This document shows, in pieces, positions 46,351-59,661 of a stretch of DNA of 64,000 nucleotides. Position 1 is the stretch's first letter, and the number at the start of each line of letters is the position of its first letter. Below the pieces are notes generated by a model. That model saw nothing but the letters and a program-made list of their open reading frames with translations, ran no database searches and was not told where the DNA came from. This DNA is from Candidatus Brocadiia bacterium (GTDB lineage: Bacteria > Planctomycetota > MHYJ01 > JACQXL01), in assembly GCA_041658285.1 (NCBI GenBank), contig JBBAAP010000002.1, forward strand, positions 119,029 through 183,028. The letters are read 5' to 3'. A program made the translations under genes and the position numbers.

Positions 46351-46353
46351 TCT

Positions 46354-46485
46354 TACTCCCTGTTAGCTATCGCCTGAATATTTTCAGGAGATAGCGTTAC
46401 AGCGGAGTTAGACCCCGCACCTATCTTTCCGGGATAGGTGCGGGGTATAAGAAATTCTAAGGCTCACGTTTCGCCAAGAATTTCT
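46354..46485 (+). repeat. Cluster of hairpins in the tRNA-Gly/tRNA-Tyr spacer (family A unit plus accccgcacc/ggtgcggggt IR plus agaaattct/agaatttct IR)
   Basis: ctgtTA-[gctatc..gatagc]-GTTacag, followed by two further inverted repeats (IRs). Confidence 0.65.
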
Positions 46486-46488
46486 AAA

Positions 46489-46571
46489 TGGGCAGGGAGG
46501 GATTCGAACCCCCGAAGCTAAAAAGCAACAGATTTACAGTCTGTCCCCTTTGGCCGCTTGGGTACCTGCCC
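46489..46571 (-). tRNA. tRNA-Tyr(GTA), no encoded CCA
   Basis: Acceptor GGGCAGG/CCTGCCC, loop CTGTAAA, long variable arm. Confidence 0.95.
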
Positions 46572-46599
46572 CGTTATCCCGCCTTAGCAGTATAACGGG
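46570..46599. mobile_element. Miniature CCCGTTA...TAACGGG element (family B) overlapping the tRNA-Tyr 5' end
   Basis: cccgttatcccgccttagcagtataacggg. Confidence 0.6.
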
Positions 46600-46622
46600 G
46601 CATGCCCAAAACAAGTTCTATA

Positions 46623-46694
46623 AGCTGGGAGCGGGATTTGCACCCGCAACCGCCGGTTTACAAAACCGGAGCTCCGCTGTTGAGCTATCCCAGC
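46623..46694 (-). tRNA. tRNA-Thr(TGT), no encoded CCA
   Basis: Acceptor GCTGGGA/TCCCAGC, loop TTTGTAA, T-loop TGCAAAT. Confidence 0.93.
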
Positions 46695-46726
46695 CCCGTT
46701 ATCCCGCCAGAGGGCGGGATAACGGG
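46695..46726. mobile_element. Miniature family B element abutting the tRNA-Thr(TGT) 5' end
   Basis: cccgttatcccgcc-agag-ggcgggataacggg, a perfect 14-bp IR. Confidence 0.65.
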
Positions 46727-46764
46727 GCCGGCATTCTCAATCTTAGTTATCCTATTCCGCCTTA

Positions 46765-46793
46765 CTGATACCAAACAGGTTATTACCTGTCAA
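46765..46793 (-). promoter_or_regulatory. sigma70 promoter of the tRNA-tuf operon with an overlapping palindrome
   Basis: TTGACA-17 nt-TATCAG; ACAGGT-TATT-ACCTGT palindrome at 46775-46790. Confidence 0.5.
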
Positions 46794-56485: not shown

Positions 56486-57391
56486 TTAGTGGTTGTTATC
56501 CTTTCCTAAATAGGCCTCTATTACCTTGGGGTCGCACTGGACGTCTTTGCAGGTGCCTTCGGCTATCTTTACGCCGTGGTCAAGCACGCAGACCCGGTCG
56601 GAGATACCCATAACCACCTTCATATGATGCTCTATCAGGAGCACGGTGATGCCGCTGTCGCGTATCTTGCGTATCAGTGCCATCAGCTCGTTGGTCTCGG
56701 TCGGGTTCATCCCGGCGCCAGGCTCATCCAGGCACAACAGTTGCGGACGGGTGGCCATGGCCCGTGCTATTTCCAGCCGGCGCTGGTCGCCGTAAGCCAG
56801 GTTGCGCGCCCAGACGTTGGCCTTGTTCACCCCGTTAGAGATACAACTCGTTCTATTTGATATGTTTCCTTTAGTTTTATCATCTGCTAAAGTAGAGGTC
56901 GGTGTTGCCGATTTGCGGTCGTCTCTCTGGAACGACCTATCTCTAACGGGGTCCACCAACCCGACGAACCGGAGCAGTTCCAGCGCCTGTTCGGTGATGC
57001 TCTTTTCCTCGCGGACCATTCCCGGATGCCTAACTAAGGCCGAAAATACCCCGCAGCCGGTCCGGCAATGCATGCCGACCATAACGTTTTCCAGCGCGGT
57101 CATCTCGGCGAACAGCCGGATGTTCTGGAACGTCCGGCAAACGCCCAGCCGGGTTATCTGGTATGCCCTCAGCCCGGTGATATCACGGTCATTAAATACT
57201 ATCTGCCCGGCCGTGGGCGCGTAAAGCCCGGTAAGGCAGTTAAAGAGCGTGGTCTTGCCGGCGCCGTTCGGTCCGATGATGCTCAGGATTTCGCCCTTGC
57301 GCAGGTCAAAACTCATGTCCTGCAAAGCGGCCAGCCCGCCAAAGGACTTCGAGACTGATTTGGCTTCGAGCAATATATTATTATTCATCAT
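56486..57391 (-). CDS. livG: Branched-chain amino acid ABC transporter ATPase with a 42-aa in-frame insertion
   Basis: GPNGAGKTT, RTFQNIRLF, LAYGDQRRLEIARA, LDEPGAG, DPKVIEAYLG; insert between GLV and NKANVW. Confidence 0.93.
   Translation of the reverse strand: MMNNNILLEAKSVSKSFGGLAALQDMSFDLRKGEILSIIGPNGAGKTTLFNCLTGLYAPTAGQIVFNDRDITGLRAYQITRLGVCRTFQNIRLFAEMTALENVMVGMHCRTGCGVFSALVRHPGMVREEKSITEQALELLRFVGLVDPVRDRSFQRDDRKSATPTSTLADDKTKGNISNRTSCISNGVNKANVWARNLAYGDQRRLEIARAMATRPQLLCLDEPGAGMNPTETNELMALIRKIRDSGITVLLIEHHMKVVMGISDRVCVLDHGVKIAEGTCKDVQCDPKVIEAYLGKDNNH
56831..56950. mobile_element. 120-bp MITE-like element (family B) inserted in frame in livG
   Basis: 13-bp perfect terminal inverted repeat (TIR) cccgttagagata/tatctctaacggg (15 bp with flanks); flanking 6-mers gtggac/gtgaac on the minus strand; net +126 nt. 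Confidence 0.85.
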
Positions 57392-59630: not shown

Positions 59631-59661
59631 CCCGTTTAGAGACAACAATGTCTCTAACGGG
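59631..59661. mobile_element. Short family B element supplying the livK stop codon
   Basis: cccgtttagagac-aacaat-gtctctaacggg. Confidence 0.7.

Follow-up and report, generated by a model that had tools for sequence, protein, structure and literature searches.

A minus-strand operon of a Candidatus Brocadiia genome, consisting of tRNA-Thr(TGT), tRNA-Tyr, tRNA-Gly, tRNA-Thr(GGT) and tuf, raises the question of how palindromes ended by CCCGTTA and TAACGGG came to lie exactly at the 5' ends of its first two tRNA genes, and how these genes stayed intact. The operon is located in a 64,000-nucleotide stretch of DNA, termed the window here, from a genome (G000) of 2.59 Mb in 29 contigs with 49% G+C. 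The evidence presented below makes it probable that both hairpins are gene-less, MITE-like copies of an element family that also has members bearing a GIY-YIG nuclease gene, and that they inserted in the first bases of the tRNA genes, the starts of which were rebuilt.

Two hairpins at tRNA 5' ends

A first-pass annotation of the window had described a 32-bp perfect hairpin abutting base 1 of tRNA-Thr(TGT) and a 30-bp copy overlapping bases 1-2 of tRNA-Tyr, with GGGCATG, a near match to the tRNA start GGGCAGG, just upstream; both features have the coordinates and sequence it gave (Table 1). The core of the tRNA-Thr palindrome (46695-46726) is CCCGTTATCCCGCC-AGAG-GGCGGGATAACGGG, 32 bp with perfect 14-bp arms, and reaches 34 bp with an outer C/G pair, the last G of which (46694) is base 1 of the tRNA. 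This assignment follows Rfam and the relatives, in which the tRNA starts GCTGGGA, while ARAGORN places base 1 at 46695. On the minus strand the leader reads ...ttgagaat GCCGG CCCCGTTATCCCGCC CTCT GGCGGGATAACGGGG CTGGGATAGCTCA... The core of the tRNA-Tyr copy spans 46570-46599 (30 bp, or 32 bp with the outer pair), its left arm being TATACTGC compared with GCGGGATA, and the junction between the two tRNAs reads ...tttGGGCATG CCCCGTTATACTGC TAAG GCGGGATAACGGGG CAGGTACCC... on the minus strand. As base 1 of tRNA-Tyr is 46571, the copy covers bases 1-2, or 1-3 if the fourth G at 46569 is counted; bases 1-3 of the tRNA are thus the last three G of the hairpin (46571-46569). The pattern CCCGTTA-N(5-35)-TAACGGG occurs twice in the window, compared with 0.02 occurrences expected from shuffles. 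A comparison of the locus with the Rfam covariance models returned only the four tRNAs above threshold and no family for the hairpins; weak matches of microRNA models to the hairpin are ascribed to chance.

Table 1. Coordinates of the tRNA genes, hairpins, stubs and related features (positions without a contig refer to the window).
Feature	Position	Strand	Description
tRNA-Thr(TGT)	46622..46694	-	sole G000 gene with anticodon TGT; right GCTGG duplicate at 46694-46690
tRNA-Thr hairpin	46694..46727		tRNA strand: CCCCGTTATCCCGCC-CTCT-GGCGGGATAACGGGG; 15-bp perfect arms, 4-nt loop
Thr stub GCCGG	46728..46732	-	former tRNA-Thr bases 1-5 (GCTGG), now upstream of the element, one substitution
Candidate operon promoter	46765..46793	-	TTGACA, 17 nt, TATCAG; upstream of Thr stub and hairpin; conserved in G000 and G001
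tRNA-Tyr(GTA)	46489..46571	-	sole tRNA-Tyr gene of G000
tRNA-Tyr hairpin	46569..46600		tRNA strand: CCCCGTTATACTGC-TAAG-GCGGGATAACGGGG; left arm decayed by three substitutions
Tyr stub GGGCATG	46601..46607	-	original bases 1-7 of tRNA-Tyr (GGGCAGG) displaced upstream, one substitution
livG copy	56830..56951		122 bp, in frame in livG; adds 126 bp including the 4-bp duplication
livK copy	59631..59661		31-bp reduced copy, CCCGTTTAGAGAC-AACAAT-GTCTCTAACGGG, at end of livK
26-27-bp copies with conserved flanks	G001 L038, L042, L044, L046, L041, L043; G000 C1:19615, C1:376503
G000 small GIY-YIG genes near tRNAs	C9:6292-6510; C4:2502-2717; C2:322372-322575
Orphan tRNA fragments beside copies	C1:4440-4520; upstream of tRNA-Leu(TAG); C6:79731		Phe-like; Leu-like; Pro-like

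Evidence for insertion

In G001, a genome of the same genus, the candidate promoter and leader of the operon match those of G000 up to ...ttgagaat, at which point G001 continues directly with GCTGGGATAG, while G000 has GCCGG, the element and then CTGGGATAG. As the leader in G001 runs straight into GCTGGGATAG, the GCCGG stub is the old tRNA-Thr start pushed upstream. The tRNA-Thr start is without a hairpin in G001, G002, G004, G005, G006 and G007, and carries a copy with a different inside in G009 and a similar one in G012, a genome from another family. The tRNA-Tyr copy has an intact orthologue in G001, TCCCGTTATCCCGC-TTTG-GCGGGATAACGGGG, relative to which the G000 copy has lost three pairs, a decay that argues against selection on the hairpin. 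In G004 an unrelated inside is found at the same nucleotide of tRNA-Tyr, with a perfect GGGCAGG on both sides. Within G000, tRNA-Met displays a fresh copy flanked on both sides by a perfect GGGCCCG, beside an older decayed copy, and the copy at tRNA-Leu(CAA) lies between perfect GGGCGTG repeats. The empty site in G001, the direct repeats in a single register and the differing copies at the same tRNA starts show that both hairpins are insertions. The first-pass annotation had named leader structures conserved among relatives, free of presence/absence variation, as the finding that would speak against mobility; comparison with the empty sites of relatives reveals that such variation exists.

It should be noted that a palindrome between short direct repeats could be lost precisely, and primary absence is therefore not assignable genome by genome; an old insertion at tRNA-Thr followed by precise loss in G001 is possible. 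A further point that weighs against the favoured explanation is that the left and right duplicates differ by one base at both tRNA-Thr and tRNA-Tyr (3/4 match each), the duplicated 4 bp of tRNA-Tyr being CATG in the stub and CAGG at 46568-46565.

In the same region of G001 (L002, contig C164), the 5' part of tRNA-Thr(TGT) is present a second time, as a 27-nt duplicate (GCTGGGATAGTTCAACAGCGGAGCT) some 30-110 nt upstream of the gene. The duplicate sits directly after the shared leader and is followed by small hairpins and then the intact tRNA; it reflects a different type of event, in which the 5' part was likewise rebuilt. In the spacer between tRNA-Thr and tRNA-Tyr (window 46608-46621), G001 has 70 bp, comprising a TTAGAACTTGTTAGCG... 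palindrome and a TCCCGACGAATGTCGGGA hairpin, that is cleanly absent in G000.

A family of palindrome-ended elements

The family to which the hairpins are assigned has the termini CCCCGTTA...TAACGGGG and comprises about 20 copies in G000, where 14 CCCGTTA..TAACGGG pairs lie less than 200 bp apart (approximately 1 expected), with several degenerate copies besides. Most G000 copies read CCCCGTTAGAG/GAAG...CTCTAACGGGG, with interiors that vary between copies. Members were detected in 9-10 of 41 related genomes, all within the same order, and a control with the reversed pattern returned 0 matches in the 41 relatives. The first-pass annotation had matched the termini of the two hairpins to those of an insertion in livG, and the outer 8 bases (CCCCGTTA/TAACGGGG) are indeed common to all three, those of the livG copy (56831-56950) being identical. 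The livG orthologues of G001, G002, G004 and G010 are without exactly the 126 bp added by this copy and display the empty site G|TGRA|C. Family copies with a length divisible by three, the livG copy among them, occur within open reading frames.

Two observations count against the favoured explanation. In their inner arms (TCCCGCC/GGCGGGA), the Thr and Tyr hairpins are unlike the nuclease-bearing copies (GAGAT...) and resemble approximately 50 other small TCCCG...CGGGA hairpins, so that the outer 8 bases alone link the two copies to the family. In addition, many copies of 26-27 bp possess conserved flanks (TTCAC...GCAAGAAGA) and no target duplication. These short copies are flanked by ..GTTCAC and GCAAGAAGAGCGCAGAGAAT, and the repeated unit is about 55-60 bp.

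The length of the target duplication was assessed in 53 non-redundant copies against 2000 permutations in several registers and lengths. Perfect 4-bp direct repeats just outside CCCC...GGGG were found in 7 of the 53, compared with 0.62 in permutations, none of which reached 7 (0/2000), while all other registers and lengths, including 6 bp and 7 bp, gave 0 or 1 perfect repeats. The first-pass annotation had likened the 6-bp flanks to eroded duplications of a GYNNRC site, an interpretation that these data do not sustain, as repeats are significant at 4 bp only. The two left 6-mers, gccggc and gcatgc, consist of a fifth base, the 4-bp repeat and a final C, with which the palindrome of the element begins. 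Among full-length copies in other phyla, 18 of 55 have perfect 4-bp repeats, mostly TGAA. In the 30 clean copies, defined by such a repeat without mismatch, the nucleotide immediately 5' of it, read on one or the other strand, is the 3'-terminal base of the element in 30/30, where about half would be expected by chance, and at 7/30 at least three further target bases match the element terminus. As the base before the repeat equals the last base of the element, the 4-bp duplication is effectively one of 5 bp. The outermost pair of the element varies by lineage, being C/G here, T/A in most ultra-small bacteria and G/C at one tRNA-Pro. The 4-bp repeats at tRNA sites are CNNG, unlike the usual TGAA of the family, and this difference counts against the favoured explanation.

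The copies thus present the features by which a MITE is recognized: terminal inverted repeats on dispersed copies (CCCCGTTA/TAACGGGG), a target duplication of fixed length (in the 4-bp register only), empty sites in relatives (tRNA-Thr in G001; livG in G001, G002, G004 and G010) and a longer, same-ended partner coding for an enzyme, in the form of 272-285-bp copies with a GIY-YIG gene.

Rebuilding and bias at tRNA starts

At tRNA-Thr the duplicated GCTGG corresponds to tRNA bases 1-5, which places the insertion point exactly at the gene boundary. In four further genes, tRNA-Tyr, tRNA-Met, tRNA-Leu(CAA) and tRNA-Leu(TAA), the repeat corresponds to bases 3-7, and bases 1-2 come from the terminal G-run of the element. 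The earlier suggestion that the element regenerates tRNA 5' ends is thereby borne out, the duplication and the terminal G together recreating the starts of tRNA-Thr and tRNA-Tyr. In the proposed mechanism a copy would insert inside the first bases of the tRNA gene, with bases 1-5 as target at tRNA-Thr and bases 3-7 at tRNA-Tyr, and would duplicate 4 bp, effectively 5 bp; the duplication and the terminal G-run would then recreate an intact tRNA 5' end downstream, and the original bases would remain as an upstream stub.

Copies are concentrated at particular tRNA genes. In G000 they are found at 5/7 of the tRNAs that start GGGC and at 1/40 of the others (Fisher P = 8e-5). All G000 copies at tRNAs abut or overlap base 1 and none lies distant within the 50-140-nt spacers, a placement that random insertion and later survival would not produce. 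In G001, copies are located at tRNA-Tyr, tRNA-Leu(TAG), tRNA-Leu(TAA), tRNA-Leu(CAA) and tRNA-Ile. In 56 genomes of the class, the exact class I tRNA junction TAACGGGG-NNNN-TWGCTCA was found in this genus only. The same arrangement recurs in other phyla, where the terminal CGGG of a copy contains the start of three tRNA-Pro genes (CGGGC..., CGGGG...) and of one tRNA-Leu gene; a perfect TGTA repeat is present at bases 6-9 of one of the four. Three further G000 copies abut orphan tRNA 5' fragments (Table 1). Taken together, the sequence data indicate insertion, a fixed duplication register, family membership and repeated targeting of tRNA starts.

The bias towards GGG starts, including the CGGG of tRNA-Pro in other phyla, may arise because these starts resemble the terminus ...AACGGG(G) and are cut by the same enzyme. 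Such terminus mimicry fits the extended identities between target and terminus, but not the CNNG (as opposed to TGAA) repeats at tRNA sites. A broader proposal, which we consider doubtful at present, is that the family seeks the 5' edges of functional units, the nuclease cutting mimics of its terminus at (C)GGG tRNA starts, both here and at the tRNA-Pro of ultra-small bacteria, and at A|TGAA start codons; the terminal bases and the 4-bp duplication would constitute a repair patch, and a hairpin that sequesters tRNA bases 1-5 would alter precursor folding and RNase P cleavage.

Fragmentary tRNA starts occur at several other loci. Upstream of G000 tRNA-Leu(TAG), C2:187800-187870 contains a decayed CCGTTATCCCGC...GGAATAACGG hairpin with 16 nt of a Leu tRNA start (GGCGAGTGGCGGAAT); the G001 tRNA-Leu(TAG) itself starts GGGCGAG and carries a hairpin. 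C1:4440-4560 combines a promoter and a hairpin copy with a 5' segment of tRNA-Phe, 38 nt long, that reaches the anticodon loop; the intact G000 tRNA-Phe on C4 (2290-2760) is followed by a small GIY-YIG gene flanked by the direct repeats TTAACCCTGAGGAACG. A second hairpin family was also observed, in which a GC-rich hairpin and then TAAGAnnnnGTAAC...CTAACnnnnTCTAA end 0-2 nt before tRNA base 1. Its sites include tRNA-Gly(TCC) and tRNA-Lys(TTT) of G000 (window 46351-46488; C7:103172-103250) and at least 10 tRNAs of G004 (L085-L115), and it also follows several tRNA 3' ends in the opposite orientation. The junction TAAC|GGG..TAGCTCA of this second family gave 12 matches in the class, compared with 1 for the control.

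The GIY-YIG nuclease and full-length copies

Full-length copies of approximately 275 bp (272-285), bounded by CCCCGTTAGAG...CTCTAACGGGG, contain one gene for a GIY-YIG nuclease of about 85 amino acids. They are found in G003, G005, G007, G009, G012 and G013, and the nucleases of these six genomes are 57-64% identical to an 87-aa protein of G000. A scan of 185,579 species located the nuclease gene at more than 550 loci across phyla. Of the 80 best loci, at least 55 contain the full-length unit, mostly in Patescibacteria and also in Planctomycetota, Omnitrophota and others. The small GIY-YIG proteins comprise 84-87 aa and retain the catalytic-motif columns, the 87-aa G000 protein matching PF01541 at 67 bits; the nearest solved structures to the nuclease are the UPF0213 proteins 1zg2 and 1ywl.

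G000 encodes three small GIY-YIG open reading frames, all adjoining tRNA genes. The frame for the 87-aa protein (C2:322315-322575) is intact; its start lies 13 bases beyond a CCCCGTTAGAGG end, and the copy at tRNA-Leu(CAA) follows directly downstream. This nuclease-bearing copy has its left end but no recognisable right end, which counts against the favoured explanation. The Thr and Tyr sites have no nuclease gene between the tRNA duplicates, only a stub of 5-7 bases; a nuclease gene between a long duplicate of a tRNA 5' part and the intact tRNA is found at a tRNA-Pro of G013 (L148) and not at these two sites. We infer that the GIY-YIG nuclease may mobilise the gene-less copies.

Several further properties of these genes were observed. 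Small GIY-YIG genes of several subfamilies lie at most about 350 nt from tRNA genes in 12/15 cases (3/3 in G000, 3/3 in G001 and 6/9 in G004), and the stop codons of some are 1-3 nt before tRNA base 1. The nuclease frame of full-length copies (for example L121 and L124) continues across the right inverted end (..RFLSLTG) to a stop codon in the flank; this flank is often a TAA(A) derived from the duplicated target, a possible reason for the bias towards TAAA/TGAA targets. At L148 (G013:C211:100-660) the GIY-YIG gene is located between a truncated tRNA-Pro copy of about 60 nt, with a different anticodon arm, and an intact tRNA-Pro(CGG). Some 45-50 bp of a host gene are duplicated at approximately 80% identity beyond the full-length copies L122 (G013:C97) and L147 (G012:C8), the duplicated part being the gene end in the former and the gene start with its ribosome-binding site in the latter; with these far-side duplicates an intact host gene is kept.

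Alternative explanations

The hairpin-only copies could be remnants of nuclease-bearing copies that landed at the tRNA starts, with the inside since deleted or replaced. The locus tRNA-Leu(CAA) fits such a history, as G000 and G001 share its left boundary, gacatt|CCCCGTTA, with a GIY-YIG gene and a 42-bp copy in the former and a 44-bp hairpin alone in the latter; the proximity of small GIY-YIG genes to tRNAs (G000 3/3, G001 3/3, G004 6/9) points in the same direction. The Thr and Tyr hairpins, however, have inner arms unrelated to those of full-length copies, and a simple internal deletion would not yield them. Moreover, perfect duplications also flank short copies at many sites other than tRNAs, livG among them, and the full-length CCCCGTTAGAG copies of the relatives lie mostly away from tRNAs. 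A remnant origin of the hairpin-only copies is thus unlikely, while in-place decay of a nuclease-bearing copy at some sites, such as tRNA-Leu(CAA), is possible.

A role for the hairpins as conserved leader structures of the tRNA operon, acting as a processing or stability signal rather than being mobile DNA, is difficult to reconcile with presence/absence variation within the genus and across the family, with differing insides at the same site and a decayed tRNA-Tyr arm in G000, or with the same ends being present inside protein genes and matching no Rfam family. Such a role would account for the exact abutment of the hairpins on the mature 5' end, for other hairpin families that end 0-2 nt before many tRNAs in the lineage and for stub substitutions that both increase pairing with the tRNA start, but we regard it as highly improbable; the hairpins themselves are presumably without function. 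Least credible is an origin as REP-type repeats, with a RAYT or IS200-like Y1 transposase responsible for their spread. The palindromes are short and partly intergenic, and G000 does encode one Y1_Tnp protein, but this sole Y1 gene (C1:444880-445620) is flanked by its own, unrelated inverted repeat, GGGGACACATCCCA / TGGGATGTGTCCCC, with no CCCGTTA within 700 bp. The family duplicates its target, unlike IS200/IS605-type elements, which do not, and the gene between the family ends is a GIY-YIG nuclease. These data largely refute a REP origin, and insertion of gene-less family members is retained as the probable source of both hairpins.

The RNA leader and RNase P

The candidate promoter (Table 1), which is absent from the list of a strict consensus scan, may serve the operon; if it is used, the Thr hairpin is transcribed within the tRNA leader. 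According to the proposed mechanism both hairpins would now be part of the tRNA leader transcript, from which RNase P would have to remove them, a constraint that the first-pass annotation had rightly raised; G000 contains a type A RNase P RNA gene (C4:89032-89401; 274 bits). Nearest-neighbour folding predicts that tRNA bases 1-5 pair into the leader hairpin, in competition with the acceptor stem, and that the upstream stub of tRNA-Tyr pairs with the 3' acceptor strand. In these calculations, which ignore tertiary structure, the fold with the true acceptor stem lies above the minimum by 5.1 kcal/mol for tRNA-Thr and 6.8 kcal/mol for tRNA-Tyr. As tRNA-Thr(TGT) and tRNA-Tyr are single-copy, maturation must work. 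The stub substitutions CTGG to CCGG (46728-46732) and CAGG to CATG (46601-46607) both raise complementarity to the tRNA start and lengthen the predicted hairpin, which, in two independent cases, may be chance. The two transcripts would provide natural precursors for the study of RNase P on a stable hairpin that overlaps the cleavage site.

Relation to known systems

The data imply that a minimal mobile element can occupy single-copy essential tRNA genes, each gene being restored by the terminal bases of the element together with a very short duplication. They would also explain features that mislead annotation, namely hairpins fused to tRNA starts, short upstream pseudo-starts and truncated tRNA copies, and they supply a testable pair of substrates, the element end and the tRNA-gene start, for unstudied, very small GIY-YIG nucleases. 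These nucleases are related in layout to the Ssn enzymes, themselves of interest as single-stranded-DNA tools. A search of the accessible literature on GIY-YIG elements or MITEs at tRNA 5' ends found no relevant description.

In the Ssn system, the gene for a single-domain GIY-YIG protein of about 90 amino acids is bracketed by hairpin repeats that are also scattered genome-wide, a hairpin-gene-hairpin layout that the authors of its description liken to an insertion sequence; SsnA binds this hairpin when the DNA is single-stranded and cleaves a few bases upstream of it (Chenal et al. 2025, PMC11893778). The likeness to the present family lies in the small single-domain nuclease (84-87 aa here) and in the location of its gene between hairpins. 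In the searchable text of that paper the word tRNA is absent, and target duplications or gene insertions are not reported (PMC11893778). Neither strand of the Thr and Tyr hairpins matches the published degenerate SRM motif, which is not enriched in G000 either, with 5 matches compared with 14-26 in shuffles. By analogy the family may work like Ssn/NTS, which is to be set apart from membership of that system, as the SRM motif does not match.

The short palindromic, non-autonomous MITEs with target duplications known as Rickettsia palindromic elements and Neisseria Correia elements resemble the present copies in their in-frame survival within genes, as in livG here, and in their cotranscription with neighbours. 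Their partners are classical transposases or unknown, whereas here a GIY-YIG nuclease gene is found between the same ends, and we know of no element of the Rickettsia or Correia type reported to insert in the first bases of a tRNA and rebuild them. SegB, a free-standing GIY-YIG homing endonuclease from the tRNA gene cluster of phage T4, provides another example of a selfish GIY-YIG gene associated with tRNA genes. In contrast to the nuclease described here, SegB is a multi-domain enzyme that spreads by double-strand-break repair between co-infecting phages, and it is without inverted ends, target duplication and gene-less hairpin copies, all three of which characterize this family.

Integrative elements attach at tRNA genes and bring with them a copy of the part they displace, such that the gene stays intact, while Ty3 and the Dictyostelium element TRE5-A are tRNA-targeted retrotransposons of eukaryotes. 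Common to these elements and to the family is the use of tRNA genes as safe landing places. Integrative elements, however, depend on an integrase and usually rebuild the 3' part of the tRNA from tens of bases of identity, whereas in this family a 4-5-bp duplication and the terminal bases of the element restore 1-5 bases at the 5' end; Ty3 and TRE5-A land upstream of the tRNA gene, and the copies described here land inside it. New in the present system are gene-less copies at tRNA starts with a 5-7-base stub, an empty site in the same genus and repeated independent insertions, together with the fifth-base rule and the rule of rebuilding from the element terminus. Should the broader proposal that the family seeks the 5' edges of functional units hold true, it would represent a recombinase-free, 5'-end counterpart of integrase action at tRNA 3' ends.
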